A stretch of DNA of 32,000 bases from Candidatus Nitrosopumilus koreensis AR1 (GCF_000299365.1 NC_018655.1:1560001-1592000); one strand, 5' to 3'; counted from the stretch's first letter, positions 1,892 to 26,629 are shown. Numbers and translations are program-made. Notes: generated by a model from the sequence alone, not told the origin.

Positions 1892-3667
1892 TTGACAATC
1901 TCAGTAAATCTTGGTAAAAAACTTGTTTTGCTTGTCATGCTTGTAACAATGACTGCTTTAGGAGTCATATCTTACATGAGCATAGATTATTCCACTGAGA
2001 CTCTTAAAGAGAGGGGAGGGGAGTTGCTACACGGTGAATCAGATATCAGAGGAGAATCTCTAAGATTACTTTTTGAGACAAGAATAGAACAAAACAAGAT
2101 TCTTGCAAATGATCCTATGATTCGATTTTTGGTTTCAGAGATGGATGGGGTTTCAGAACTAGAATTAAAATCTATGAAAGAAGAAAAACGTAGAGATTTT
2201 CTAATTCAAGTACAAGCATTTCAAGAACTTGTCGGATTTTCAATTGGATTTGAAGATACTAAAATAATTGGGAATAATGGAAATGTGTTCTTTTCACTAG
2301 TAGGAATATCTGATGAGGATTACTCTCAAAACGAGTATTTTCAGAGAGGGTTAAAGGAGTCATTTGTTGATTTTGAACCTTCAGGAACGGGTAAAAAAAT
2401 GATTGTTGTTACTCCTGTTTATGCCATAGATAGTAAAATTGGAGATGAAGCTATTGGGGTCATCATTTCTAGAATGAGAACTGCTGCAATTGACAATATT
2501 TTGCTTAACAGAAGTGGATTGGGTGAAACGGGTGAAGTCTACATTGTTAATAGTGACTTTGTAATGTTGTCTGAATCTAGATTTTTTGAAAATGCAGTAT
2601 TTGAACAACGAGTAGATACAGTTGGTGTTCAAGAATGTTTTACCAATAACATGGAATATGTTGGAGTTTATCCTGATTATAGAGGAATTTCGATATATGG
2701 ATCATCTTATTGCATGCCAGAATTTGGTATTGTCTTGCTTGCAGAAATGGACGAGAAAGAATTAGTTGAACCAATAAAAATTCTACAGACCAGAATTGTC
2801 CTTACTAGTTTACTCATAACGATGGCAATGGGATTAGTTGCATTTTTTGCTGCTGAGTCATTGTCACATCCACTACGTGCACTCAAAAAAGCTGCAAATA
2901 AAATTGCAGATGGTAATTTTGATGTTAGAACCAATATCAAGACAAGAGATGAGATTGCAGAATTATCTAATGCATTTGATTTAATGGCACAAAAATTACA
3001 AGAATCATTAATCGAGATTAAACAAAAAGACGAAGTCATCAAACAGCTTGAAGGTGATACGTTGTTGAAGTTCTCACAACGTGAAGAAAATGATTGTGTC
3101 GGAGTAATTGACATGGCAGATTCTACTAGAATATCATCAAAATTATCTGATCAGGATATTTCTAAGCTATATGAAATATTTTTGAATTTTATGGCAAAGA
3201 TTGTTATCAATCACAAAGGAGAAGTCATAAAAAATATTGGGGATGCATTGATGTTTAGATTTGCAAACGTAGATACCAACAATGATGAAAACATGAAAAA
3301 TATTCTAGAATGTTGCTTGTGTATGGTTGAATCACATAGAAAGTTACAAGAAGAACTTAAAAAAGAAAATATGCCCATAGTAGATTATAAAATTAGTTTA
3401 ACATATGGTCCTGTCAAAGTAGCTGAAAGTACTACTTCAAAAATTAGTGATGTTTTTGGTCCTACTGTAAATCGATGTTTTAAAATAAATTCACTTTGTC
3501 CTAAAAACAGCTTAGTTGTTGGTGAAAATGTAGAAAAGATCTTTAGGGATTTTTCAGAATATGAATTTACAGAATTATGTATAATTGAATTAAAACAAAA
3601 ATACGGTTACAATATTTTTGAAGTCAGAAGAAAAAGGCCAGAGTATTTTAATAAAAAATCTGATTAA
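1892..3667 (+). CDS. membrane sensor adenylate cyclase (extracytoplasmic Cache-like domain - HAMP - class III cyclase)
   Basis: TM1 lies at about aa 10-30, followed by a loop of about 270 aa and TM2 at about aa 300-322. HAMP-like segment: PLRALKKAANKIADGNFDVR…DEIAELSNAFDLMAQKL. Cyclase motifs: IDMADSTR, KNIGDALMF, SDVFGPTVNRCFK. The start is TTG and is needed to keep TM1 intact. Confidence 0.75.
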   Translation: MTISVNLGKKLVLLVMLVTMTALGVISYMSIDYSTETLKERGGELLHGESDIRGESLRLLFETRIEQNKILANDPMIRFLVSEMDGVSELELKSMKEEKRRDFLIQVQAFQELVGFSIGFEDTKIIGNNGNVFFSLVGISDEDYSQNEYFQRGLKESFVDFEPSGTGKKMIVVTPVYAIDSKIGDEAIGVIISRMRTAAIDNILLNRSGLGETGEVYIVNSDFVMLSESRFFENAVFEQRVDTVGVQECFTNNMEYVGVYPDYRGISIYGSSYCMPEFGIVLLAEMDEKELVEPIKILQTRIVLTSLLITMAMGLVAFFAAESLSHPLRALKKAANKIADGNFDVRTNIKTRDEIAELSNAFDLMAQKLQESLIEIKQKDEVIKQLEGDTLLKFSQREENDCVGVIDMADSTRISSKLSDQDISKLYEIFLNFMAKIVINHKGEVIKNIGDALMFRFANVDTNNDENMKNILECCLCMVESHRKLQEELKKENMPIVDYKISLTYGPVKVAESTTSKISDVFGPTVNRCFKINSLCPKNSLVVGENVEKIFRDFSEYEFTELCIIELKQKYGYNIFEVRRKRPEYFNKKSD

Positions 3668-4818
3668 TTTCTAGAAAAACCAAACTTTGATGCCCAACCT
3701 GATTTTTGTTTTTTTGTGGGTTTTTTTGATAGATTGTTGAGCATGTCATATGTAATTGTAAATCCATGTCCTACCATGGTTGCATCATTTGCATAGTTTG
3801 CCTTGTTAGGAACAAATTCATCAGATAAATCTTTGATTTTCTTTGTTTTGAGATCAAATAATCTAATTTTCTTACCGTTTTCTAATTCAATTTTTGCATC
3901 ACCACTCAATCCTTGAATTGAGAAATTTTCAAAAAATCTAATTGAGCCTCCTTCTTTTAGTTTGATAACAGAATCATACGTAAATTTTCCTCCATAAAAC
4001 AAGACCTCACGTGCAGAGATTGTTACATCATCTTCTACATTTAGAACAATAACTGTGTCAGCGTCTAAAGACACGGTGTTTACTACATTTTCAGCAATAA
4101 TCTTACCATTTGGAGCCGAAACTTGAGTTCTGTGTTCCAGTATTTTATAGACGCCAACCTTTCCATCAGGATCTTCAACTCTAAATTTTCTGCCAAAAAT
4201 ATTTCCTACTACAACGTTTCCATTATCTACAATAATTTTAGCACCATTTTCAATTTTGTATTTATTTTCCACAGGATCAACAAATTTGAAGTCTCCTTTT
4301 GTTAGATGAATATTTGTTTGAAATTCTTTAGTCCAAGATGGACTGGTAATACTTCCCTGCATAGTAATTGGGCCATCATAAGTTAAACTTCCAGCCATAA
4401 AATTTCCTTTAATAGATAAAGCACCATTGGCTTTTCTTTCCAATTCAATTTCACCAAGAGTTTTTGAACCAAATAATCTTGAGGCAGTTGAATTTGCTCG
4501 ATTTAATGCTGCTGCCCACTCTTCAGCTGTTTTCATTTCTTTAGACAACTGTTGTCCCAGAATCTGATTTTTTCTTTTTACATCTGCTTCAGATTCATCA
4601 GAATATACTCTTGAGTTTTTTATTTTTTCAATATCTGTTTCAGGATATTTTTTGCCAATTTTTAGATCCTCATATGCTTGTTTAATTTTTATGAATTGTT
4701 CATTTTCTCCACCACGATCAGAATGATACTGTAAGGCTAGTCTTCTGAATGCATCACGAATTTCTTTATCACTAGTTCCTTCGACAATTCCTAAAATATC
4801 ATAATTACTTTCAACCAT
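3664..4818 (-). CDS. J-domain protein with variant HSD tripeptide and uncharacterised beta-rich C-terminal region
   Basis: N-terminus YDILGIVEGTSDKEIRDAFRRLALQYHSDRGG…FIKIKQAYEDL fits a J domain. The C-terminal ~250 aa is rich in short G/N/V/I beta-strand-like repeats. Confidence 0.7.
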   Translation of the reverse strand: MVESNYDILGIVEGTSDKEIRDAFRRLALQYHSDRGGENEQFIKIKQAYEDLKIGKKYPETDIEKIKNSRVYSDESEADVKRKNQILGQQLSKEMKTAEEWAAALNRANSTASRLFGSKTLGEIELERKANGALSIKGNFMAGSLTYDGPITMQGSITSPSWTKEFQTNIHLTKGDFKFVDPVENKYKIENGAKIIVDNGNVVVGNIFGRKFRVEDPDGKVGVYKILEHRTQVSAPNGKIIAENVVNTVSLDADTVIVLNVEDDVTISAREVLFYGGKFTYDSVIKLKEGGSIRFFENFSIQGLSGDAKIELENGKKIRLFDLKTKKIKDLSDEFVPNKANYANDATMVGHGFTITYDMLNNLSKKPTKKQKSGWASKFGFSRN

Positions 4819-5464: not shown

Positions 5465-6289
5465 ATGATAATTACTGAAATTTCAAACAAGCCAATCTCT
5501 ATTATCAAAAATTCTACAATTTCAGATGCAATCAAAATGTTACTAAATACAAAGATCAGCAGATTAATTGTAAATGATGGTGGAAAACATATTGGCATAA
5601 TTACTGAAAAAGACATAGGGCTGTTTTTGTTTTCAGAAACAACAAAGAGAGGGTTGGAAGAAATTCCCATTACAGACATTATGAATCCAATTGAATTTGT
5701 TAAACAAGATATTACACCAGAAGATGCTGCAAAGATAATGATTGAGAGAAAAGTTAGCTCATTAGCTATAGGTGAAAAGCAAGAAGTTAAAGCAATAATT
5801 ACTAAAAGTGATCTTGTGAGATATTTTGCTGAAAAACCATCAGAAAAAAGTAAAGTTGTAGATTTTATGACTCATGATTATGAATATACACATACTGCTG
5901 CACCATTGTATAAAGTTGTAAGAAAAATGTTAGAAAAGAAAATTTCAAGAATTATAGTAAAAAATCAACAAGAAGAACCAGTAGGAGTTATTTCATTTAG
6001 AGATTTGTTTAGGATATCAATTGAGCTTGGCAGTGAAGATGATTTTTCGGGCACAAATTTTGACAATGTTAGACGTGGATTTCTCTCTACAGAAGGATTT
6101 GGGGATATTTCATTAGCTAGAGATGTAATGAGTAAGGGGCTAATCACTATCAAATTCAATGAAGATTTAGTAGAAGCATGTAATGTGTTATTAGAGAATA
6201 ATGTAAGCGGTCTAGTTGTTCTTGATGGGAATAATAGTATTGCAGGGATAATTAGTAAAAGTGATGTAGCAAAGGCACTGTCATCATAA
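5465..6289 (+). CDS. CBS-domain protein (about four CBS repeats)
   Basis: Repeated CBS-like units: …ISRLIVNDGGKHIGIITEKDI, VSSLAIGEKQEVKAIITKSDL, ISRIIVKNQQEEPVGVISFRDL, VSGLVVLDGNNSIAGIISKSDV. Confidence 0.8.
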   Translation: MIITEISNKPISIIKNSTISDAIKMLLNTKISRLIVNDGGKHIGIITEKDIGLFLFSETTKRGLEEIPITDIMNPIEFVKQDITPEDAAKIMIERKVSSLAIGEKQEVKAIITKSDLVRYFAEKPSEKSKVVDFMTHDYEYTHTAAPLYKVVRKMLEKKISRIIVKNQQEEPVGVISFRDLFRISIELGSEDDFSGTNFDNVRRGFLSTEGFGDISLARDVMSKGLITIKFNEDLVEACNVLLENNVSGLVVLDGNNSIAGIISKSDVAKALSS

Positions 6290-6290
6290 C

Positions 6291-6974
6291 ATGAAATGGC
6301 ATTTTGATGATTTTGTTTATGGCTCTATTGATGGAGCAGTAACAACTTTTGCAATTGTTGCAGGAGTTGTAGGAGCTGGTTTATCACCTGGAATTATTTT
6401 GATTTTAGGATTTGCAAATCTTTTTGCAGACGGATTTTCAATGGCAGCTGCAAATTATCAGGCATCAAAAGCCAAAAATGAGTTTATCCAAATGAAACGA
6501 AAACAAGAAGAATGGGAAATTGACAATTTAGCAGAACAAGAAAGAGATGAAATCAGAGATATTTACAAGGAAAAAGGATTCAAAGATGAATTATTAGAAG
6601 AAGTTGTTAGGATCATTACATCCAGAAGAAAAGTTTGGGTGGATACTATGATGAAAGAAGAATTAGGATTAATTGAAGATGAAAAAAATCCTTTAGATAG
6701 TTCTTTTAGTACTTTTATTGGATTTAATCTAATTGGCTTAATTCCATTAATACCATTTATGATCTTCATAATGATTGGAGTTGAACCAAATTCGGAGGCA
6801 TTTAGTTATTCTATAATTGCAGTAAGTGTAGCATTCCTTCTTGTAGGTATGATCAAAGGAAAAATTGTAAAAAAATCAAAAATTCGTTCAGGAATAAATA
6901 CACTAATCATAGGAGGAGTAGCAGCATTTGTTGCATATTTTGTAGGATATGGATTAAATTTTCTAGTAAATTAG
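6291..6974 (+). CDS. VIT1/CCC1-family iron/manganese transporter
   Basis: N-terminus DGAVTTFAIVAGVVGAGLS, an acidic cytoplasmic helix bundle region and C-terminal TM helices. ATG lies 1 nt after the CBS gene stop. Confidence 0.75.
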   Translation: MKWHFDDFVYGSIDGAVTTFAIVAGVVGAGLSPGIILILGFANLFADGFSMAAANYQASKAKNEFIQMKRKQEEWEIDNLAEQERDEIRDIYKEKGFKDELLEEVVRIITSRRKVWVDTMMKEELGLIEDEKNPLDSSFSTFIGFNLIGLIPLIPFMIFIMIGVEPNSEAFSYSIIAVSVAFLLVGMIKGKIVKKSKIRSGINTLIIGGVAAFVAYFVGYGLNFLVN

Positions 6975-6984
6975 GAAAGCGTAA

Positions 6985-8286
6985 ATGTCTGAACTAAAGC
7001 GACACATGGGACTTTTTCATCTCATCATGTATGGTGTTGGATTAATTCTTGGTGCAGGAATTTATGTATTAATTGGTGAAGCTGCAGGATTTGCTGGAAA
7101 TTCAATGTGGATTTCTTTTTTGTTAGGTGCAATAGTTGCAATTTTTGCAGGGTTAAGTTATGCAGAGTTATCTGCACTATATCCAAAAGCTGCTGCAGAA
7201 TACACATTTGTAAAAAATGCATTCAAGAATAATTTCTTTGGTTTTATTATAGGATGGTTAACAGCAATTACATCGATTATAGTTGCTGCAACTGTTTCAT
7301 TAGGATTTGGAGGTTATCTTACTCAGTTTGTTGATTTACCAATTACGATTGGAGCAATATTTTTGATTATAGTTTTATCGATTGTAAATTTTATTGGGAT
7401 AAAAGAATCTGCATGGGCAAATACTATTTTCGCATTAATCACTGCAGCAGGCTTAATTCTAATTATTGTTATTGGTTTTAGTGCAGAACCAGTTGAACCA
7501 ATAGACTATTTAGAAGCACCAAATGGAATTACTGGGATAATTCTAGCATTTGTTTTGATTTTCTTTGCATTTATCGGATTTGAGGATATGGCAAATGTTG
7601 CTGAAGAAGTTAGAAGACCTCACAAAACAATTCCAAGAGCAATAATAATATCAATAGTCATCACGGGTATAATTTACGTTCTAGTTTCATTATCAGCAGT
7701 AAGAATTCTAAATTGGGAAGAATTGGCATTATCCTCTGCGCCATTGGCAGATGTAGCACATTCAGTTTTGGGTACAAATGGCAGTATTACCTTGTCATTA
7801 ATTGCGCTATTTGCAACTGCAAGTACTGTTCTGATAACATTGGTTGCTGGTGCAAGAATTCTGTATGGAATGGCAAAAAGCAATTCATTGCCTCAATTTT
7901 TAGCCAGAGTTCATCCTAAGACAAATACACCATGGATTGCAGTTGTTGGAATTTTGATAGCATCAATTGGATTTGCCTTTGTTGGAGACATTGTAATTAT
8001 AGCAAATATTGTAGTTTTTGCAGTAGTTATCACATTTGCAGCAATTAATTTGGCAGTAATTGTCTTGCGATATACAGAACCAGTATTGGAAAGACCATTT
8101 AGAGTCCCAGTCAATATTGGAAAATTTCCAATTTTACCATTGTTTGGATTCGGAACAACTATCTATATGGCATTACAATTTGATATTCAAGTTGTTTTTG
8201 TAGGGCTAGGCATTATGGGAATTGGAGTAGTTTTGTATTTGGTTTTAAAAAGAAGAAATTATTTTGTAGAGTCTAATTCTTTTTAG
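6985..8286 (+). CDS. APC-superfamily amino acid/polyamine permease
   Basis: About 12 predicted TM segments. N-terminal GAGIYVLIGEAAG and FIGFEDMANVAEEV motifs are typical of APC transporters. Confidence 0.8.
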   Translation: MSELKRHMGLFHLIMYGVGLILGAGIYVLIGEAAGFAGNSMWISFLLGAIVAIFAGLSYAELSALYPKAAAEYTFVKNAFKNNFFGFIIGWLTAITSIIVAATVSLGFGGYLTQFVDLPITIGAIFLIIVLSIVNFIGIKESAWANTIFALITAAGLILIIVIGFSAEPVEPIDYLEAPNGITGIILAFVLIFFAFIGFEDMANVAEEVRRPHKTIPRAIIISIVITGIIYVLVSLSAVRILNWEELALSSAPLADVAHSVLGTNGSITLSLIALFATASTVLITLVAGARILYGMAKSNSLPQFLARVHPKTNTPWIAVVGILIASIGFAFVGDIVIIANIVVFAVVITFAAINLAVIVLRYTEPVLERPFRVPVNIGKFPILPLFGFGTTIYMALQFDIQVVFVGLGIMGIGVVLYLVLKRRNYFVESNSF

Positions 8287-8929
8287 ATTTTGTAAGTGCA
8301 ACAACTGCAATTGCTATACCTATTAGTCCAACAGCTGTTCCTGCATAGCCCATATCCATTTGTTGTTTAGTCTCTTCTAAATCATTTACAGATTCTTTTA
8401 GTTCACCAATATCCTCAATTAATGCAGTATGTCCATCAATCATTTGTTGTATTGTAATATCAGATGGTTCAGGAAATTCAATGTATGCTCGTTCTTCAAC
8501 TTTGGGAGGATGCATTGATAAACTAATTGGAGTATCTGTTATAGTTCCCAACACATTAGCCTGATAAAATCCAGATACAGTAGGATTAACAAATGCATAA
8601 TATTTTCCAGGAATGTCATGGTCTGGTGAAAGTGGAAGCATTATGTTTTCATCTTTGAAAATTAATTGTATTTTTACTGTTTTTTTTAAACCTTCAATTC
8701 CGTTTTGAAATTCTTGAGATTCTGCACATTTTATGGGTTTTGAAATTTCAGGACATGGAATTAATGGACTAACATAGAATTCAATCGCATTTGTTTCTCC
8801 TGAAACAACTGGTTCATTCATCCATCCAATTTCTACTCTATATTCACCAACAGCATCTATAGTATGTCCATATACGATTCCAATTGAGCTTGGAATCAAC
8901 AATAAAAGAAATAAAATTTCAAGTTTCAT
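8273..8929 (-). CDS. secreted, C-terminally membrane-anchored protein of unknown function (mature N-terminus predicted to be His)
   Basis: Start moved to the internal ATG at 8929, which gives the signal peptide [27 protein letters not shown]-terminal TM AVGLIGIAIAVVALT followed by KSKKN. A TATA-like ACATTTTTAAAATC lies upstream. Confidence 0.55.
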   Translation of the reverse strand: MKLEILFLLLLIPSSIGIVYGHTIDAVGEYRVEIGWMNEPVVSGETNAIEFYVSPLIPCPEISKPIKCAESQEFQNGIEGLKKTVKIQLIFKDENIMLPLSPDHDIPGKYYAFVNPTVSGFYQANVLGTITDTPISLSMHPPKVEERAYIEFPEPSDITIQQMIDGHTALIEDIGELKESVNDLEETKQQMDMGYAGTAVGLIGIAIAVVALTKSKKN

Positions 8930-9001
8930 GCTAAAAAAACTAGATTTGATTTTAAAAATGTTATATTGTTTGAAATTAGTTATACTATGAATTTGTACCA
9001 A

Positions 9002-10447
9002 TTATGCATCAGCATACATTGAAACTTCCCATGCTGTTGGGGTTTGAGCAAACGCAACATATTCTTTGTATTTTAATTCAGAATACACATCAAGAAAGTC
9101 TTTTGTGAACACTTCTTCAAGGAATTTTGAATCAGAGGATAAGGAATCAAGGGCACCTTTTAGCGATACAGGTAATGAACCAATTTTATATTCCCTTTTC
9201 TTTTCTGAAGAAAGTTTGTAAATATTTTCTTCAATTGGATCTCCAGGATCAATTTTATTTTTAATTCCGTCTAAACCCGCAAGTAATAATGCAGCTTCTA
9301 AGAGATAGATGTTTGCAGTAGGATCAGGGACTCTATATTCAATCCTCTTGCTTTTTTCTTGATTTCTATTATACATTGGAACTCTTATTGCAGCTGATCT
9401 GTTTCCCAATCCCCAGCAAACATTGACTGGTGCCTCAAATCCAGGAACCAAACGTTTGTAAGAATTTGTTGTAGGATTTGAAATTGCACATAACGCTGAG
9501 GCATGGCTCAAAATTCCTCCAATGTAATATCGTCCAGTCTGACTCATTTGTGCTTGTTCATCATCTTTATCATACATTACATTTGATTTATCATTCCATA
9601 AACTTTGGTGAGTATGCATTGCTGAAGCATTATCACCAAAAATTGGTTTTGGCATAAATGTTGCAACTTTGTTTTTTCGTTTAGCTTTGACTTTAACTAA
9701 ATTTTTCACTCCAATTACATGATCAGCCATCTGGATCATTTCATCATATTCAAGATTAATTTCACATTGACCAGAAGTTGCAACTTCATGATGTTCTGCT
9801 TCTATTCTAATTCCAAAGAAATTATACAAGTCATCACATACATCCTTTCTAAACCCCTCAAGAGTATCCTTAGGTTGAGATGGATAATATCCTTCTTTCA
9901 GATTAATTGCAGTACTAACATTTCCTTTAGCCCAAGGTGATTCTTTAGATTCAATAGAGTAACCTGAACCACCATATGATTGAGTTGCAGCGTATGGAGA
10001 TGGATAAACATTGATAGTGTCAAAAACAAAAAATTCTATTTCAGGTCCCCAATTTGTATGAGTGAATCCGAATTCTTTGAGTTTCTTTGTTGCTTTATGT
10101 GCAATTCCTCTTGAATCTCTGTTGTATCTTGAACTTTCATCAGTACTCCCATCATACAAATCACAGAAAATTCGAGCATTTCTCCTATTACCAGGATCAT
10201 AATCAGGTGGAAGAATTTTAAATGAAGTTGGATCTGGCATTAAAATCATATCAGAATGATTTACAGCTTTGAATCCAACAATTGAGCTTGCATCCAATTT
10301 TTCAAGACCATTTACAAAACTATTTTCATCAATTGCATAGCTTGGCATACCAACGTTATGCAATTCACCAAAAATATCTACAAACCAAAAATCGAGAAAT
10401 GATATTTTTTCAGCTTTTATGGTTTGGAGCACTTGTTCTGCGTTCAA
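9002..10447 (-). CDS. glnA: glutamine synthetase type I, paralog 1
   Basis: NWGPEIEFFVFD, HHEVATSGQCEINLEY, KPIFGDNASAMHTHQSLW, NSYKRLVPGFEAP, GNRSAAIRVP, RIEYRVPDP. The only possible start upstream of the conserved N-terminal domain is TTG 10447. Confidence 0.9.
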   Translation of the reverse strand: MNAEQVLQTIKAEKISFLDFWFVDIFGELHNVGMPSYAIDENSFVNGLEKLDASSIVGFKAVNHSDMILMPDPTSFKILPPDYDPGNRRNARIFCDLYDGSTDESSRYNRDSRGIAHKATKKLKEFGFTHTNWGPEIEFFVFDTINVYPSPYAATQSYGGSGYSIESKESPWAKGNVSTAINLKEGYYPSQPKDTLEGFRKDVCDDLYNFFGIRIEAEHHEVATSGQCEINLEYDEMIQMADHVIGVKNLVKVKAKRKNKVATFMPKPIFGDNASAMHTHQSLWNDKSNVMYDKDDEQAQMSQTGRYYIGGILSHASALCAISNPTTNSYKRLVPGFEAPVNVCWGLGNRSAAIRVPMYNRNQEKSKRIEYRVPDPTANIYLLEAALLLAGLDGIKNKIDPGDPIEENIYKLSSEKKREYKIGSLPVSLKGALDSLSSDSKFLEEVFTKDFLDVYSELKYKEYVAFAQTPTAWEVSMYADA

Positions 10448-10526
10448 TTGATAATTTTAGAAAATCAATTTACTAATGTTATCATGTAAGATAGATTTGT
10501 CAAGATGGTCAGGTAAATTATGAAAA

Positions 10527-11873
10527 TTAACTGCTTTTTGATGCCTTAATTGCATTTAATTCGTCTTCAAAGAAGAATTTATCACCAAATGCAGGCTTTA
10601 AATCATCTAACCAAATCGCATTTTCATCATATTTTGCAAAAAATGGTTTTTTGACCCAATCTGGGTTTCGTCCCTGCAAAAATCTCAAAACCAGTAATTT
10701 CTGGCCGTTAAATTCTGTAGTTCCAACGACCTGAACTTTTCCAGGAGTTGCTGACATACTAGGTCCGCGTACAGTTCTTGCCAACCCACTAACAGTAGAA
10801 TATGCTTGGCCAAAGGTTTGATATGCTTTAACCAAAGGAACTCCAAAATAATGCTGAGCGCCTGTATCTCTTACAACAAACATGTAATATGGAATACATC
10901 CAAGTTGGACCTGTTTTGTCCACATTTTTGACCACATTTCTGCATCATCATTGATATGAGCTAAAAGTGGCGATTGAGTTCTAATTTGAGCGCCTGTTTG
11001 CCTTACTTCTTTGATTGCAGACTTTACGGCATCAGTTGATAGCTCGTTTAGATGGTTAAAGTGAGCCATAAATGCAAGATGTAATCCATTATCAGTGATC
11101 TTTCTAAAAACATCCAACATTTCTTGTGAATCTGAATCAGTCAAAAACTTGTATGGCCAATAAGAAAGTGCTTTTGTTCCAATTCTAATTGTTTTAAGAT
11201 TAGGCAGTTTCGCTTCAATTAAAGCATCAACATATTTGGAGAACATTTTTGCTTTCATTATCATTGGATCACCACCGGTAAAGAGAACATCTGAAATTTC
11301 AGGATGTTCTGAAACATATTGAACAAGTTGTTCTCCTTCTTGCATTGCAAATTTCATTTCATCCATACCAACAAATTGAGGCCATCTAAAACAAAAACTA
11401 CAATATGCATGACAAGTCTGACTTTGACTTGGAAAAAACAGACAAGTTTCCTTGTATTTGTGTTGCATGCCATACAATTTTGTTCCATCATTCAAAGTTG
11501 GGACATTTAGCTCCATTTGTCCTGCTGGATGAGGATTAAGTTGTAAACGAATTTCATTTGCAACATTTGCTATCTCTTTTTTATCAGAAGTATTTTTTAG
11601 AGTATTTTCCATTTTTGAGTAATGTTCAGGCTTTAGCATTCCTTTTTGAGGAAATGTCAAAACATACATCGGATCGGTTGGTATGTTATCCCAATTGATC
11701 AATTGTTCAACCACATAGTTATTTGCCTTAAATGGCAAAACATTTCCTACAACTTCCATCTCAAACTGTTTTTCTTCAGAAAGATTCTGAATTTGTGGAA
11801 GATCACGAAAATTTGATAATGTGTATGATTTGAGTGAAGGAGAATCATCCCAAACTGATTCTTGATAGGTCAC
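10527..11873 (-). CDS. KamA-family radical-SAM/PLP amino acid 2,3-aminomutase, probably not lysine-specific
   Basis: C154-x3-C158-x2-C161 (CHAYCSFC), LFTGGDPM, PYYMFVVRD, and the putative PLP lysine in ATPGK379. GTG start directly after an in-frame stop. Confidence 0.8.
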   Translation of the reverse strand: MTYQESVWDDSPSLKSYTLSNFRDLPQIQNLSEEKQFEMEVVGNVLPFKANNYVVEQLINWDNIPTDPMYVLTFPQKGMLKPEHYSKMENTLKNTSDKKEIANVANEIRLQLNPHPAGQMELNVPTLNDGTKLYGMQHKYKETCLFFPSQSQTCHAYCSFCFRWPQFVGMDEMKFAMQEGEQLVQYVSEHPEISDVLFTGGDPMIMKAKMFSKYVDALIEAKLPNLKTIRIGTKALSYWPYKFLTDSDSQEMLDVFRKITDNGLHLAFMAHFNHLNELSTDAVKSAIKEVRQTGAQIRTQSPLLAHINDDAEMWSKMWTKQVQLGCIPYYMFVVRDTGAQHYFGVPLVKAYQTFGQAYSTVSGLARTVRGPSMSATPGKVQVVGTTEFNGQKLLVLRFLQGRNPDWVKKPFFAKYDENAIWLDDLKPAFGDKFFFEDELNAIKASKSS

Positions 11874-12031
11874 TTAGTAATTAGCACGCTAACCCTTGTT
11901 AAAGGTTACAAATTTTTTACGCATAAAACTGTTCAAATTTAATAAAAAATTAGCAAAAATTTTAAAAAATATGAGAATATTCCTTAACATTTTATTCTAG
12001 ACTATGAATGTGATTAGAATAGGGAATCATT

Positions 12032-13771
12032 TTGGCAGAAGAAGACATTTCACAAATTTCAGTAGGAGAATTTGAGACTGTTTCACAGCTTCTAGCATCT
12101 TCAGAATCACTCCAGTTGGCATTTATCATCATGATAGTTGGAATTATTGGAATTGCCATAGGATATAGAAAATTTTCATCTTGGGTAAGTTCACAAAAAT
12201 TCTATTATCAGAGACCACATGTCTCAAGATTTCTTAGAAGAGCTGTTTTGCCTTTTTTTGCAATTGCTCTAATTACAACCATTAACATCTATACTCAGAC
12301 AGGTATCTTACTAGAAGAGGATTTTAATGCAGTTAAAGATGGAGAAATGGCTCCTCAAAAAATATTTGCAAAAATTCTCAATACTTTCAACATACTTGTA
12401 ATAGGATATACTGTTTCACATCTTATTCCAATAGCTCTTACTAAACGTGATAAATCAATTTTAGAGAGAGAAGACTTTGATGCTTGGTTTGAAATGCGTG
12501 GGTTTGTTGATGATAATGGTGATCTATTTCACAAGTTGTACAAATGGGTACCTCCAAAAATCACACCTGAAGATATTGAAGAAGATGAATTCAAAGAATT
12601 GTTAAAATCCAAAGAAGGAATGCAAAAATTAGAACAGTTCAGAACAACAAAAGGTAATCCCATTGGAGGATATGAAAAATTAGTGGAAGATCCATTTGAA
12701 GACTGGAAAAAATCAGAACGGGCAAAATATGAAAAATATTTTCAAAATTGTGTTTCAGGAAACAACCAATCCGGAAGAAAATTAACACCAGGTGCAAAAC
12801 CAGAGGAAATTTATCCCATTGATGTTTGGCGAGAAGAAAAACGCACACATGGTTATGAACCAATTATTCCAAGTTCTCGTCCTCCAGGATATGCTGAAAA
12901 GAAAAGAGAGGGAATTCCAAAGTCTGCAAAACAAGTTCTACCGATAGGGATTTTTGCTGCTACCATTTTGGGAGTTATTGCATGGTGGGGAGTAGATTTG
13001 ATAGTTCTTGCTACAGCAACTGGTGGTTTCTCAATTGGTTTAGGTTTAGCATTACAAGAAACGATGCAGAATTATTTTGCATATATCATGATTAGAAAAG
13101 ACAAGATTGTAGTAGAAGGAGACAGAGTACAATTAGAGACAGGGTATAACGGATATGTACACAAAATAACTCCCAGAGTTACATACATTAGAGATGCATT
13201 ACACGAATCAATTGCAATCATTCCAACAAGACAACTTGTTTCAGCACAGATTATCAATTATACAAAAGAAAACAAACTTGTTCCAGCAATAGTCAAAGTT
13301 GGTGTTTCATATCTTAACAACCCTCGTCAGGTTGCATCTATTTTAGTAAAAGTTGGAAAACGAGGTATGAAGGAGATTGTTGATGGTAAAGGAAGACATC
13401 TAGTAAGACAGAACAGATGTCCATATCTAGATGAAAATAAACCAAGTTGTGGTTGTGACAGAGATATTCATGTAGAAGTTGTTCAACCAGTAATTAGATT
13501 TAATGATTTTAATGATTCCTCACTTGACTTTTCAATGTGGCTGTATGTAAGAGATTACGGTGCACAATTCAAAACAAAAACTGATTTGAGGATGATAATG
13601 TATGAAGAGTTTAAGAGATACGACATCAGAATTCCATGGCCAATTAGAACCATCTATCAAGGTGATGAAAAGAAAGAATTTGAAGAAATCAGTAAAGGAG
13701 ATCAGGATAGAAAAAGAGTGCTGGATGAATATGGTACGGGCGATATTGGACGTGGTGGCGGAGAAGACTAA
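12032..13771 (+). CDS. MscS-family mechanosensitive channel with a large charged insertion
   Basis: Pore-helix and beta-domain signature GGFSIGLGLALQETMQNYFAYIMIRKDKIVVEGDRV. N-terminal TM helices, with a ~165-aa Lys/Glu-rich segment between them and the pore helix. Confidence 0.75.
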   Translation: MAEEDISQISVGEFETVSQLLASSESLQLAFIIMIVGIIGIAIGYRKFSSWVSSQKFYYQRPHVSRFLRRAVLPFFAIALITTINIYTQTGILLEEDFNAVKDGEMAPQKIFAKILNTFNILVIGYTVSHLIPIALTKRDKSILEREDFDAWFEMRGFVDDNGDLFHKLYKWVPPKITPEDIEEDEFKELLKSKEGMQKLEQFRTTKGNPIGGYEKLVEDPFEDWKKSERAKYEKYFQNCVSGNNQSGRKLTPGAKPEEIYPIDVWREEKRTHGYEPIIPSSRPPGYAEKKREGIPKSAKQVLPIGIFAATILGVIAWWGVDLIVLATATGGFSIGLGLALQETMQNYFAYIMIRKDKIVVEGDRVQLETGYNGYVHKITPRVTYIRDALHESIAIIPTRQLVSAQIINYTKENKLVPAIVKVGVSYLNNPRQVASILVKVGKRGMKEIVDGKGRHLVRQNRCPYLDENKPSCGCDRDIHVEVVQPVIRFNDFNDSSLDFSMWLYVRDYGAQFKTKTDLRMIMYEEFKRYDIRIPWPIRTIYQGDEKKEFEEISKGDQDRKRVLDEYGTGDIGRGGGED

Positions 13772-25156: not shown

Positions 25157-26629
25157 TTGAAGTATAAATTGCCCTATAAAGTCAGTCACGGAAAAGCAAT
25201 CCAAGTAACATATTCACCTGACGAGGTTTTTTCAAGAATTCAACATGAGGGAATTCAATTTATCGATCTTCAATTTACTGGTTTAACTGGTCATTTTCAT
25301 CATACCACAATTTCAGCAGACACATTTACTCCTGAACAGATGAGAGACGGGCTACCAAAATTGGATGGTTCATCCATTGTGGGTTTTACTAGTATTGATG
25401 ATTCAGATTTACTTCTAAAACCCGACCCAAATACATTTGCAATAATTCCATGGATGACAGAAAACAAAACAGCTAGAATGCTTTGTGATGTATATTGGGG
25501 AGAAGGTAGAGGCAGATTATCAAGAGATCCTCGTGGAATTTCTCAAAAAGCTGAAGAGTACATCAAAACACAAGGATTTGATTTTAGTACATGGGGTCCA
25601 GAGGTAGAATTTTTTGTTTTTGATAAAGTACATTGGGATGTTTTAACACCATACAAAGGACAATCATATTCAATTGAATCTAAAGAAGCACCATGGAGTC
25701 AAGAGGGAGATGGATATCCAATGGGATTACAGGAAGGATACTATCCCAGTACACCATCAGATACGCTTACACCATACAGAAATGAATGTGTAAATATTCT
25801 AAAGAATAATTTTGGGATTTTATGTGATAATCATCATCATGAAGTTGCAACAGCTGGCCAATGTGAGATTGATATCAAATATGATTATATGACAAATGCG
25901 GCTGATGCTGCACAATCTTACAAATATGTAATTAGAAATGTTGCTCAAAAATATGGCAAGGTTGCAACAATGATGCCAAAGCCAATTGCAATGGATTCAG
26001 GTTCAGGAATGCATGTTAATGTTAGTTTATGGAAAGGAAAGGAAAATACATTCTTTGATCCAGATGATGAAGACGAACTAAGTCAGACTGCAAGATACTT
26101 TTGTGGTGGAATAATTAATCACGCAAAAGCGTTATCAGCAATTTGTAATCCAACCACTAACTCATATCATAGATTAGTGCCAGGTTATGAGGCTCCAGCA
26201 TACATTGCATGGAGTTCTGGAAACCGTTCGGCAATTGTCAGAGTTCCAAAACATCTCAAAGGAAAAGAATATTCCAATCTAAAGAGATTAGAATTTAGAG
26301 CACCTGATCCTTCATCAAACCCATATCTTGTATTTGCTGCAGTTACTGCAGCTGGTATGGATGGACTCAAAAAGAAGACGGATCCTGGTGATCAGGTTCG
26401 TGATGATATTTTCAAAATGACAAAATCAGATAGATCAAAGAGAGGAATTGGCGTTCTTCCAAAGAGTTTAGGAGAAGCGTTAGATGAGTTAGAAAGTGAT
26501 AGAAAATTCCTTAATCCAATTTATACAAATGATGTAATTGATAAAATTATAGAATTAGAAAGAAGAGATCAACGTGAAATTGCCATTAGGCCCCACCCAC
26601 ACGAATTTTATCTGTACTTTGATGTTTAG
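25157..26629 (+). CDS. glnA: glutamine synthetase type I, paralog 2
   Basis: TWGPEVEFFVFD, HHEVATAGQCEIDIKY, KPIAMDSGSGMHVNVSLW, NSYHRLVPGYEAP, GNRSAIVRVP, RLEFRAPDP. TTG start immediately after an in-frame TGA. Confidence 0.9.
   Translation: MKYKLPYKVSHGKAIQVTYSPDEVFSRIQHEGIQFIDLQFTGLTGHFHHTTISADTFTPEQMRDGLPKLDGSSIVGFTSIDDSDLLLKPDPNTFAIIPWMTENKTARMLCDVYWGEGRGRLSRDPRGISQKAEEYIKTQGFDFSTWGPEVEFFVFDKVHWDVLTPYKGQSYSIESKEAPWSQEGDGYPMGLQEGYYPSTPSDTLTPYRNECVNILKNNFGILCDNHHHEVATAGQCEIDIKYDYMTNAADAAQSYKYVIRNVAQKYGKVATMMPKPIAMDSGSGMHVNVSLWKGKENTFFDPDDEDELSQTARYFCGGIINHAKALSAICNPTTNSYHRLVPGYEAPAYIAWSSGNRSAIVRVPKHLKGKEYSNLKRLEFRAPDPSSNPYLVFAAVTAAGMDGLKKKTDPGDQVRDDIFKMTKSDRSKRGIGVLPKSLGEALDELESDRKFLNPIYTNDVIDKIIELERRDQREIAIRPHPHEFYLYFDV

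Follow-up and report, generated by a model that had tools for sequence, protein, structure and literature searches.

Among the described systems closest to the locus reported here, lysine 2,3-aminomutase (LAM; KamA/AblA) of C. subterminale, whose structure is 2A5H, binds the epsilon-amino group of lysine through D293 and D330 and carries a C-terminal CxCxxC zinc site, and in osmolyte operons the AblB acetyltransferase is adjacent to it. The ablA gene provides a precedent for riboswitch control of an osmolyte aminomutase, through a tandem Na+/c-di-AMP arrangement (White et al., 2022, PMC9337991). For methanogens, a glutamate 2,3-aminomutase for osmolyte synthesis (MmarC7_1783) was reported in 2022 (Tunckanat et al., 2022, Biochemistry 61:1077); older NMR labelling work had spoken against beta-glutamate being formed by an aminomutase in these organisms (PMC1224877). 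Further, a methanogen glutamine synthetase (GS), from Methanohalophilus portucalensis, has been reported to amidate beta-glutamate (Robinson et al., 2001, via PMC1224877).

Beta-glutamate is an anionic compatible solute that reaches near-molar levels in marine ammonia-oxidizing archaea (AOA), which are abundant ocean microbes; in published metabolomics of N. maritimus it was the most abundant identified metabolite, at 730 mM. A first-pass annotation of the DNA studied here had presented a beta-amino-acid osmolyte module as undescribed for AOA, with ectoine as the known osmolyte; the solute itself is not new, as beta-glutamate was already known in these organisms, and the new part is the gene assignment only, and in this work we propose the likely synthase gene.

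Gene layout and transcription elements

The window, i.e., the whole stretch of DNA analyzed, comprises 32,000 nucleotides of Candidatus Nitrosopumilus koreensis AR1 (NC_018655.1:1560001-1592000), to which it is 100% identical. On its minus strand, a gene for a KamA-like radical-SAM/PLP 2,3-aminomutase of 448 aa with a GTG start (10527-11873), predicted to act on glutamate, is followed after a spacer of 79 bp (10448-10526) by GS1 (481 aa, TTG start; 9002-10447), one of two paralogous type I glutamine synthetases in the window. An MscS-family mechanosensitive channel of 579 aa (12032-13771, plus strand) is divergent from the aminomutase across 158 bp (11874-12031), and a second type I enzyme, GS2 (490 aa; 25157-26629, plus strand), lies 15 kb away, outside the module, and is considered here as context only. 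The first-pass annotation had the gene coordinates, both spacers, the divergent channel and the distance to GS2 exactly right, and its family assignments (GS, MscS and KamA-like) were confirmed by profile scores, that of KamA lying under the cutoff of its model; the APC permease that it had noted nearby (6985-8286, plus strand) was not consistently linked to the locus. The annotated start codons are supported by relatives, in which ATG, GTG or TTG are conserved at the same positions.

The aminomutase, GS1 and MscS genes each have a promoter-like element of their own, thus they do not appear to constitute one operon. For the aminomutase, a BRE (GTAACC) and a TATA box (TTTAACAA) are located at 11896-11909 on the minus strand, 30 nt 5' of the start codon, and an alignment of 15 Nitrosopumilaceae spacers showed that they are kept even in GC-rich genomes; their position implies that the gene has its own, putatively leaderless or near-leaderless, transcript. 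The MscS element (TCCTTAACATTTTATTCTAGA; 11981-12001, plus strand), located in the same 158-bp spacer, is conserved mainly in Nitrosopumilus and close relatives. A conserved TATA-like sequence (ATTAGTAAA; 10469-10477, minus strand) is found 30 nt 5' of the GS1 start, which suggests that GS1 may be transcribed independently of the aminomutase.

Enzyme class, substrate pocket and predicted reaction

Profile searches matched the aminomutase to Radical_SAM and to the generic KamA model TIGR00238. For the latter the score was 127.2 bits, short of the cutoff of 199.2, so that its clade falls outside the family in its curated form. Identity to LAM is ~17-20% in the alignment to 2A5H, the LAM reference, whose sequence was checked and found 100% identical. 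The protein shares with LAM the cluster motif CxxxCxxC (C154/C158/C161, corresponding to LAM C125/C129/C132), the SAM-site residues including the GGD motif (G200-G201-D202, H271 and Q300 for LAM G170-G171-D172, H230 and Q258), the PLP lysine (K379 for K337) and the alpha-carboxylate arginine (R163 for R134), the last two being invariant among 76 homologues. Furthermore, its AF2 model (pLDDT 80.8, pTM 0.83) had LAM 2A5H as the top Foldseek match in the PDB (E=1e-17, TM 0.61-0.66), the next radical-SAM structure reaching only E=1e-5. Unlike LAM, it lacks the C-terminal zinc site (LAM C375/C377/C380), with zero cysteines in the aligned C-terminal region. As judged from its cofactor motifs and LAM-like predicted fold, the gene product is a radical-SAM, PLP-dependent enzyme of the KamA type. 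Across metagenome relatives its identity is 80-91%, whereas MscS reaches 59-83% and the gene of unknown function downstream 46-85%, values from which strong purifying selection on the aminomutase is apparent. A role as EpmB, i.e., in EF-P beta-lysylation, was rejected (TIGR03821, 100 bits vs a cutoff of 369; no EpmA-like neighbour); as far as is known, archaea use aIF5A with hypusine.

In the substrate pocket, the alignment places R335 at the position of LAM D293 and S372 at that of D330, so the two residue substitutions invoked by the first-pass annotation are real. R369 represents an extra arginine, and invariant arginines stand at the LAM D293 and F327 positions; R163, R335, R/K369, S374 and K379 were kept in 76/76 homologues (57-88% identity), and the same signature was kept in Methanomicrobiales homologues at 31-33% identity. 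In Methanomicrobiales with both paralogues, AblA keeps D293/D330 and the neighbouring Arg-type paralogue displays R/R, like the AOA protein. Lysine 2,3-aminomutase was rejected as the identity of the enzyme, given R335/S372 in place of the Asp pair and a TIGR03820 score of 105.5 against a cutoff of 525.4; unlike in LAM osmolyte operons, neither AblB nor a GNAT gene was found beside the aminomutase gene in the window, 17 AOA loci or 59 non-AOA loci.

The predicted reaction is that of the glutamate 2,3-aminomutase Eam from Clostridioides difficile (Ruzicka and Frey, 2007), and the protein is not a member of the Eam equivalog (NCBIfam TIGR04368, 86 bits vs a cutoff of 650); since the Eam score is far below its cutoff and the KamA score also below its own, glutamate specificity would have arisen separately from that of clostridial Eam or be only very remotely related to it. 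In Eam, the two Asp of LAM reportedly give way to Lys and Asn, i.e., one basic and one neutral residue, where the AOA enzyme has Arg and Ser, and Eam acts in glutamate fermentation by an anaerobe, as opposed to the bulk-osmolyte biosynthesis proposed here for an aerobe. The methanogen enzyme MmarC7_1783 is likewise an archaeal radical-SAM aminomutase; it is reported to make beta-glutamate for salt tolerance and to carry an N-terminal extension of ~160 aa, which is absent from the AOA protein.

Taken together, R335/S372 and the invariant arginine signature support the earlier suggestion of a non-lysine, most plausibly glutamate-acting enzyme, and our best reading, with a probability of roughly 0.6, is that of a glutamate 2,3-aminomutase making beta-glutamate, in a clade that the curated Eam model does not cover; this clade occurs in Nitrosopumilaceae and many marine bacteria, with more distant members in Methanomicrobiales. 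Aminomutases of this radical-SAM type are usually oxygen-labile, whereas AOA are aerobes, which counts against it. The gene was found in all sampled Nitrosopumilaceae; the beta-glutamate measurement comes from N. maritimus SCM1, which lies outside that check. By homology to LAM, a [4Fe-4S] cluster on C154/C158/C161 would reductively cleave SAM, the 5'-deoxyadenosyl radical would take the C3 hydrogen from glutamate bound as an aldimine to PLP, which K379 would carry in the resting enzyme, and the amino group would shift from C2 to C3, giving beta-glutamate. R163 would hold the alpha-carboxylate of glutamate, and we infer that R335, at the LAM D293 site, and R369 would hold the gamma-carboxylate, with Ser372 at the D330 site. 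Among the 59 non-AOA loci, no recurrent acetyltransferase, ligase or ATP-grasp gene was found beside the aminomutase, therefore its product looks like an end product.

Alternatively, the enzyme could be an aminomutase, or a related radical-SAM/PLP enzyme, for an acidic or polar amino acid other than glutamate or for a peptide- or carrier-bound substrate; AOA would then obtain beta-glutamate in some other way, for instance by amination of glutaconyl-CoA, a pathway that has been proposed for methanogens. We consider this unlikely, even though the aminomutase, as well as the tested members of the wider clade, fails all curated equivalog models including Eam, and the labelling data once spoke against an aminomutase route in methanogens. 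In addition, a 42%-identical relative (P0128) is fused to an N-hydroxylating monooxygenase, a type of enzyme typical of natural-product pathways, so substrates may vary in the wider clade; and the one partner that recurs across phyla, a class I/II aminotransferase of the AspAT-like type (immediate neighbour in 9/59 and within ~5 genes in 13/59 non-AOA loci, and present also at one AOA locus, L004), could indicate a different substrate derived from a 2-oxo acid. Conversely, the two invariant arginines together with the kept equivalent of R134 fit a dicarboxylic amino acid; among these, an aspartate reaction would be degenerate, and glutamate is the only one with a beta-isomer known to accumulate in these organisms. 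Moreover, the osmotic contexts described below fit a bulk solute and not a secondary metabolite, and for methanogens a route through glutamate 2,3-aminomutase was reported after the labelling work (Tunckanat et al., 2022).

The MscS channel and osmotic contexts of the clade

The channel was recognized by PF00924 (MscS; 31.9 vs a cutoff of 20.2) and PF21082 (21.9 vs 21), and among PDB entries MscK (7uw5, E=1.8e-10) and MscS (2oau, 1.7e-5) matched its residues 300-445, which approximately delimit the pore and beta-domain; a long charged insert is located N-terminal to them. It adjoins the aminomutase in 16/16 evaluable Nitrosopumilaceae species and in every metagenome locus reaching far enough, thus the link drawn by the first-pass annotation proved robust. 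The two genes stay together in lineages that have lost the PRPP-synthase and methyltransferase genes flanking them elsewhere, and their adjacency outlasts an inversion (locus L009) and an insertion (L004), hence it exceeds background synteny. On osmotic downshift, the divergent channel would probably act as an emergency valve for the anionic solute pool. In N. maritimus, the ectABCD-mscS cluster (Widderich et al., 2016) reportedly follows the same logic, the genes for a compatible solute being joined to that for an MscS-type safety valve and co-transcribed with it; there the solute is zwitterionic and the channel shares the transcript, whereas at the aminomutase locus the solute would be anionic and the channel gene points the other way, under a promoter-like element of its own.

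It could also be argued that the aminomutase, GS1 and MscS act independently in Nitrosopumilaceae, their order being inherited with no functional coupling. The three separate promoter-like elements would agree with this, as would the generally high synteny of the family, in which the PRPP-synthase and methyltransferase genes are often kept nearby too, and the presence of MscS within two genes of the aminomutase in only 1/59 non-AOA loci; conserved adjacency in such a family is weaker evidence than co-regulation. We regard this explanation as somewhat unlikely, considering that the MscS adjacency survives the rearrangements mentioned above, that the ectoine genes are said to offer a precedent, and that a salt-related role of the aminomutase is likely in view of the independent osmotic links found in Chloroflexota and in Methanomicrobiales.

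In Chloroflexota, a c-di-AMP riboswitch (RF00379) was identified upstream of the aminomutase in 8/10 loci, at 70-220 nt and on the same strand, scoring 60-97 bits where the gathering score is 38. This arrangement, directly 5' of the gene, resembles that of ablA with its tandem riboswitch (PMC9337991), although it concerns another aminomutase clade with another predicted substrate, the search detected only the c-di-AMP type and no Na+ riboswitch, and the AOA aminomutase locus was devoid of riboswitches. The Arg-type paralogue directly adjoins the ablA-ablB osmolyte genes in 4/5 Methanomicrobiales genomes, and neighbours of the Arg-type loci in this order include Na+/H+ exchanger, ClC, Kup and SNF genes. 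Three independent contexts, namely the MscS channel, the c-di-AMP riboswitch and ablA-ablB, therefore link the clade to osmoadaptation. Besides, at one marine gammaproteobacterial aminomutase locus a canonical MscS is accompanied by two Na+/H+ exchangers. The five cultured bacterial carriers belong to Marinobacter, Marinifilum, Carboxylicivirga, Ancylomarina and Rapidithrix, all of them marine genera.

GS1 and the proposed beta-glutamine step

With a TIGR00653 score of 517 bits (cutoff 429), the domains PF00120 and PF03951, and the E-E, H-E, R, E-flap and E-x-R motifs conserved among 11 orthologues, GS1 scores as a standard GlnA and is predicted to be catalytically complete. It is 44% identical to GS2 and carries an atypical active-site loop: residues 271-278 read GDNASAMH in 90/90 intact copies (the window, 10 species loci and 79 metagenome loci), with N-A-S-A-M-H instead of the canonical N-G-S-G-M-H, which was present in the five solved GS among the alignments listed, and GS2 keeps both glycines (S-G-S-G-M-H). 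The loop is located beside the metal-ligand His and the glutamate site.

GS1 directly follows the aminomutase in 10/17 Nitrosopumilaceae species, being deleted in 6/17 and reduced to a 250-aa pseudogene in 1/17, and the aminomutase and MscS are kept in these seven. The adjacency expected by the first-pass annotation across relatives thus stands for MscS and in part for GS1. GS1 is present after the aminomutase in 8/9 more divergent lineages of the family, and the aminomutase-GS1-MscS trio is probably ancestral to Nitrosopumilaceae. In metagenome loci centred on GS1, the aminomutase is directly upstream in 60/68, the remaining 8/68 corresponding to unrelated contexts, one of them beside gatCAB, a glutamine consumer. 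Outside AOA, GS1 was found beside the aminomutase in 0/59 loci with a called KamA-like ORF and in none of the Methanomicrobiales. From these data, GS1 is best regarded as a genuine GS isozyme and a facultative neighbour, non-obligatory to the system, with glutamate as a predicted common substrate with the aminomutase and an ancestral neighbourhood.

The two-step pathway of the first-pass annotation, from glutamate to beta-glutamate and then to beta-glutamine, is supported in its first step, while GS1 is only loosely tied to the aminomutase and its contribution, which we infer from context, makes for a weak second step. For a full three-gene module, in which GS1 would convert beta-glutamate into zwitterionic beta-glutamine and MscS would vent the pool, the probable ancestry of the trio, the 60/68 metagenome loci and the invariant loop of GS1 speak in favor, together with the M. 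portucalensis precedent, a type I GS from a beta-glutamate-containing organism (PMC1224877). GS1, in comparison, is known from its sequence, and its linkage to the aminomutase is facultative. We find such a module very unlikely: GS1 is lost or decayed where the other two genes persist, has its own promoter-like element, is unlinked to the aminomutase outside AOA, retains all catalytic residues of an ordinary GS, a role that the gatCAB neighbour would also fit, and no report of beta-glutamine in AOA was found in the accessible literature. Some of the genomes without GS1 are MAGs whose names refer to the Black Sea and the Caspian, a distribution that would fit a solute needed only at high salinity and that we record as a lead only.

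The aminomutase and its substrate pocket

The KamA-like radical-SAM/PLP enzyme of Ca. Nitrosopumilus koreensis AR1 is encoded by an ORF of 448 amino acids (10527-11873, minus strand), and its product is 100% identical to an NCBI entry labelled 'L-lysine 2,3-aminomutase'. Against the generic KamA model it scores 127 bits, with a curated cutoff of 199, and its scores for the specific models are 105 bits for AblA (cutoff 525), 100 for EpmB (369), 95 for arginine aminomutase (600) and 86 for the glutamate 2,3-aminomutase Eam, TIGR04368 (650). A sequence search gave a single relative with a solved structure, lysine 2,3-aminomutase (LAM, structure 2A5H; E=8e-19), whose sequence, checked as 416/416 identical, was used as the alignment reference; residue roles were thus assigned by homology and not from coordinates. 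The cluster cysteines C125/129/132 of LAM correspond to C154/158/161, the alpha-carboxylate arginine R134 to R163 and the PLP lysine K337 to K379, and the GGD motif, H230 and Q258 are kept, whereas the C-terminal zinc-site cysteines of LAM are missing. An AlphaFold2 model (pLDDT 80.8, pTM 0.83) found 2A5H as its best PDB match over the full length (E=1e-17, TM 0.61-0.66), ahead of other radical-SAM enzymes by twelve orders of magnitude. The conserved cofactor and catalytic positions, together with the LAM-like fold, identify the protein as a predicted true 2,3-aminomutase-type enzyme.

The substrate pocket differs from that of LAM. The first-pass annotation had described a non-lysine enzyme with two residue substitutions, and both are real in the 2A5H alignment: R335 and S372 take the places of D293 and D330, with which LAM binds lysine's epsilon-ammonium group. 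With both aspartates replaced, the enzyme is predicted to be unable to bind lysine in the LAM manner. A further invariant arginine, R369, occupies the position of F327, and the two arginines would face the distal end of the substrate, an arrangement that fits a dicarboxylic amino acid.

The enzyme belongs to a broad clade, with 326 clusters at E<=1e-30 in a search of 1.84 billion representatives and at least 80 loci in a scan of species-representative genomes. The latter comprised at least 17 Nitrosopumilaceae loci (70-88% identity), the gene being near-universal in the sampled members of this family, and at least 63 loci in other organisms (58-70%), namely Chloroflexota/Dehalococcoidia, Bacteroidota, Balneolales, Ignavibacteria, Gammaproteobacteria including Marinobacter, Persephonella and Thermoplasmatota. 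Among the matches listed, all five cultured isolates carrying the gene belong to marine genera, namely Marinobacter (M. flavimaris), Ancylomarina (A. longa), Marinifilum, Carboxylicivirga and Rapidithrix, habitats being assigned from organism names. The signature R163, R335, R/K369, S374 and K379 was kept in 76/76 full-length homologues among the matches listed, R335 being lost in more distant representatives, and no member of the wider clade scored above any NCBIfam equivalog cutoff.

The metagenomic protein P0128 (882 aa) carries an N-hydroxylating flavin monooxygenase (PF13434; histamine N-monooxygenase-like, 259 bits) fused to an Arg-type KamA-like domain 42% identical to the aminomutase; it looks like an enzyme of a natural-product pathway, so substrates may differ in the outer clade. 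The N-terminally extended relatives P0229, P0196 and P0203 have a composition other than that of Methanococcus. A 79%-identical copy lies on a 6-kb IMG/VR UViG contig (L161, 3454-4782), which is probably a misclassified host fragment.

Neighbourhoods and regulatory elements

All coordinates proposed for the locus at first pass proved exact when the ORFs of the window were re-checked. A gene for a 579-aa channel (12032-13771, plus strand), placed in the MscS family by Pfam and NCBIfam, is divergent from the aminomutase gene across 158 bp, and GS1, a glutamine synthetase (GS) of 481 aa (9002-10447, minus strand), lies 79 bp downstream of the aminomutase. The adjacency of the three genes, offered in the first-pass annotation as a point to be checked across relatives, held throughout only on the MscS side: among the matches listed, the MscS gene adjoins the aminomutase in 16/16 evaluable Nitrosopumilaceae species, and GS1 follows it directly in 10/17. 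The MscS neighbourhood is retained in lineages whose other flanking genes have changed; in one locus (L009) it persists with the channel gene inverted, and in a Nitrosopumilus MAG (L004) an aminotransferase lies between the two genes. In N. maritimus, a 2016 study by Widderich reportedly found an MscS gene transcribed together with the ectoine genes, a direct precedent in these archaea for the pairing of solute synthesis with a release valve. Ahead of the pore helix of the channel lies an insert of ~160 aa (residues ~140-300) that is strongly charged, with many E, K and D, and has no match in solved MscS-family structures, which align to residues 300-445 only.

In AOA (ammonia-oxidising archaea), a BRE/TATA-like element 'GTAACC TTTAACAA' is located 30 nt upstream of the aminomutase start and is kept in 15/15 aligned spacers, including those of GC-rich genomes. 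The MscS side of the divergent spacer has its own conserved element, and a conserved 'ATTAGTAAA' precedes the GS1 start by 30 nt. With separate promoter-like elements, the aminomutase, MscS and GS1 genes look like three transcription units as read from these motifs, and a single operon of the three was rejected.

Outside AOA, the KamA-like gene is mostly solitary: among the matches listed, none of the 59 loci with a called KamA-like ORF had a GS, an acetyltransferase or an ATP-grasp enzyme beside it. Its sole recurrent partner across phyla, among the matches listed, is an AspAT-like class I/II aminotransferase that scores under all NCBIfam equivalog cutoffs and is an immediate neighbour in 9/59 non-AOA loci and within ~5 genes in 13/59 (occurrences include L022, L024, L027, L030, L036, L039, L058, L072 and L079). 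The same enzyme is the one intercalated in the Nitrosopumilus MAG (L004, 8528-9886, minus strand), and this copy groups with the bacterial ones, a sign that the pair may have been transferred. Non-AOA loci sporadically have ClC channels with CBS domains or Na+/H+ exchangers nearby, a canonical MscS occurs in one marine gammaproteobacterial locus, and a Pfam census of second neighbours in bacteria returned lineage-specific synteny only (e.g., PBP2/RodA, peptidases).

In Chloroflexota, 8 of the 10 loci among the matches listed have a c-di-AMP riboswitch (RF00379, 60-97 bits, gathering score 38) on the same strand, 70-220 nt ahead of the KamA-like start codon (L018, 3824-3962; L020, 9499-9643; L021, 9641-9785; L044, 4719-4859; L060, 4090-4237; L064, 9639-9803; L068, 9666-9804; L071, 9743-9887). 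RF00379 was absent in all other lineages scanned, no Rfam family was matched at the AOA locus or upstream of the gene in ~50 non-Chloroflexota loci, and the two Chloroflexota loci checked for an intrinsic terminator between riboswitch and gene had none. Riboswitches of this type are part of the regulon for osmotic homeostasis. For ablA, a tandem Na+/c-di-AMP riboswitch is on record as the control of an 'osmotic stress response gene' (PMC9337991). In L044, a second c-di-AMP riboswitch (4465-4599, minus strand) lies upstream of, and would drive, a class III aminotransferase gene (PF00202; 3126-4400, minus strand) divergent from the riboswitch-controlled KamA-like gene, and the same aminotransferase cluster is found a few genes away in Ignavibacteria (L072, L079).

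A distant Arg-type group (31-34% identity), with R335, R369 and K379, occurs in Methanospirillum, Methanosphaerula, Methanocorpusculum and Methanoregula, and a search seeded with the Methanospirillum protein returned Methanomicrobiales matches only. In 4 of the 5 genomes examined, its gene directly adjoins ablA and ablB on the same strand (L162/L163, 5001-8408; L165, 4001-7500; L166, 1555-5107; L167, 4001-7409); these two are the salt-induced genes behind N-epsilon-acetyl-beta-lysine. Genes for Na+/H+ exchangers, ClC, Kup, SNF transporters or PAS sensors lie near these ablAB loci. In the same genomes, AblA retains D293/D330 and the neighbouring paralogue has R/R, such that the locus may encode two distinct beta-amino-acid osmolyte enzymes. 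The clade is tied to osmoadaptation by three independent lines, from AOA (the MscS linkage), Chloroflexota (c-di-AMP riboswitches) and Methanomicrobiales (the ablAB neighbourhood).

The neighbouring glutamine synthetase

GS1 is a complete, standard type I enzyme (TIGR00653, 517 bits vs 429; Pfam and NCBIfam) and, at 83-94% identity, ranks with the region's best conserved genes. A second GS 15 kb away had been noted at first pass and is indeed present (GS2, 25157-26629, plus strand; 44% identity to GS1). Among the matches listed, GS1 is cleanly deleted in 6/17 Nitrosopumilaceae species, the aminomutase then abutting the next conserved gene, and in L006 it is reduced to a 250-aa remnant. These losses are concentrated in Nitrosopumilus proper; GS1 is kept in 8 of the 9 more divergent lineages listed, and the aminomutase-GS1-MscS trio is therefore probably ancestral. 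With GS1 as bait, the aminomutase was found directly upstream in 60/68 evaluable metagenome loci, the remaining 8 having GS1 in mutually different, unrelated contexts; in L121 (119-5302), GS1, there too with the NASAMH loop described below, is divergent from gatC-gatA-gatB, which encode a glutamine-consuming enzyme, without an adjacent aminomutase. No GS1 relatives were found in viral contigs, and a virus-borne GS1 was rejected.

The loop NASAMH (residues 273-278; 9614-9631, minus strand), in which both canonical glycines are changed to alanine, is a constant trait of GS1: the motif GDNASAMH was present in 90/90 intact copies (the window, 10 species loci and 79 metagenome loci), in contrast to GS2 and the five displayed solved GS alignments, which keep both glycines (G-S-G-M-H). 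By homology, a histidine that binds metal sits in this loop, which also borders the glutamate site, and the substitutions leave room for a changed substrate preference or regulation. In methanogens, the beta-glutamine of Methanohalophilus is made by GS (Roberts 2005, PMC1224877). With this invariant loop, GS1 might be a dedicated beta-glutamate:ammonia ligase, which would give Nitrosopumilaceae a genetically defined pathway of two steps, L-Glu to beta-Glu and then to beta-Gln, a proposal that we consider quite unlikely. If true, the anionic solute could be exchanged for a zwitterionic one when salinity is higher, and the repeated losses of GS1 would label lineages that had shifted to brackish water. 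The names of several GS1-less genomes, such as L002 (BS17), L005 (casp-thauma3) and L007 (13_July_SF), point to brackish sources (Black Sea, Caspian and possibly San Francisco Bay); the comparison genomes are the window, L003 and L008.

The complete module of the first-pass annotation, in which the aminomutase is followed by GS1 as the source of beta-glutamine, with MscS as the valve, is likewise unlikely. It is supported in part: a non-lysine, likely glutamate, aminomutase does lie beside MscS. An obligatory beta-glutamine step is disfavoured, as GS1 has been lost repeatedly, has its own promoter-like element, is missing from every non-AOA locus among the matches listed and occasionally lies beside gatCAB.

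Beta-glutamate in marine ammonia-oxidising archaea and other features of the window

The preferred reading, to which we assign a probability of roughly 0.6, takes the gene product for a glutamate 2,3-aminomutase whose clade falls outside the curated Eam family and which supplies marine AOA with their beta-glutamate pool; what doubt there is about the glutamate-aminomutase assignment is entirely about the substrate. Beta-glutamate, the predicted product of the aminomutase, would itself be the solute, in keeping with the finding that no conserved modifying enzyme recurs; beta-lysine, by contrast, needs AblB. The AspAT-like partner would supply glutamate or drain to it. Persephonella, which carries a homologue (L037), may contain beta-glutamate, although our literature search found no report of it.

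Among the metabolites identified in N. maritimus, beta-glutamic acid is the most abundant, at 730 mM intracellularly in strain SCM1, the gene being read here in AR1 and the sampled Nitrosopumilaceae, and in seawater particles it rises with ocean depth (Heal et al. 2021, PMC8269262; echoed in PMC8281238). The earlier statement that ectoine is the only known AOA osmolyte is thus out of date. The accompanying view that the pathway was undescribed in AOA survives in part: beta-glutamate and the general enzyme type were known, and no paper naming the AOA beta-glutamate gene, or tying an aminomutase to AOA, was found in the searchable literature, where neither the clade nor its AOA assignment nor its regulatory and genomic settings seem to have been described. 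For methanogens, early labelling data spoke against the formation of beta-glutamate by an aminomutase (Roberts 2005, PMC1224877), and a glutamate 2,3-aminomutase with a role in salt tolerance is attributed to Tunckanat et al. (2022) in a 2026 preprint.

The locus provides a specific candidate gene for beta-glutamate synthesis in marine AOA. If the assignment is correct, it would serve as a metagenome marker for beta-glutamate production and explain a large nitrogen- and carbon-containing pool of the dark ocean, and a radical-SAM enzyme would be shown to maintain a solute pool of nearly molar size in an aerobe. The enzyme would further constitute a second, sequence-distinct solution to glutamate specificity within the KamA family, connected to known osmotic control circuits by the MscS linkage and the c-di-AMP riboswitches. 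Marine AOA are among the most abundant cells of the ocean.

Several other features were observed in the window. A 242-aa protein (8273-9001, minus strand) with an N-terminal signal or transmembrane segment and a C-terminal transmembrane anchor, without a match in Pfam or NCBIfam, is conserved in many Nitrosopumilaceae directly downstream of GS1 or, in loci with a GS1 deletion, of the aminomutase. Beyond it, a four-CBS-domain protein, a VIT1 iron/manganese transporter and an APC amino-acid permease (5465-8286, plus strand) are separated by gaps of 1 and 10 bp, a possible operon that several Nitrosopumilus loci retain. The permease, mentioned at first pass as nearby, does end at 8286; its membership in the module was rejected, as it occurs only in some Nitrosopumilus loci and is separated by the 242-aa gene. 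The DP2 polymerase gene seemed to be split at the end of the window, which was dismissed as an artefact of ORF listing. Finally, a membrane sensor with dCache, HAMP and adenylate/guanylate cyclase domains (1892-3667, plus strand) represents, in an archaeon, a cyclic-nucleotide signalling component near the osmolyte locus.
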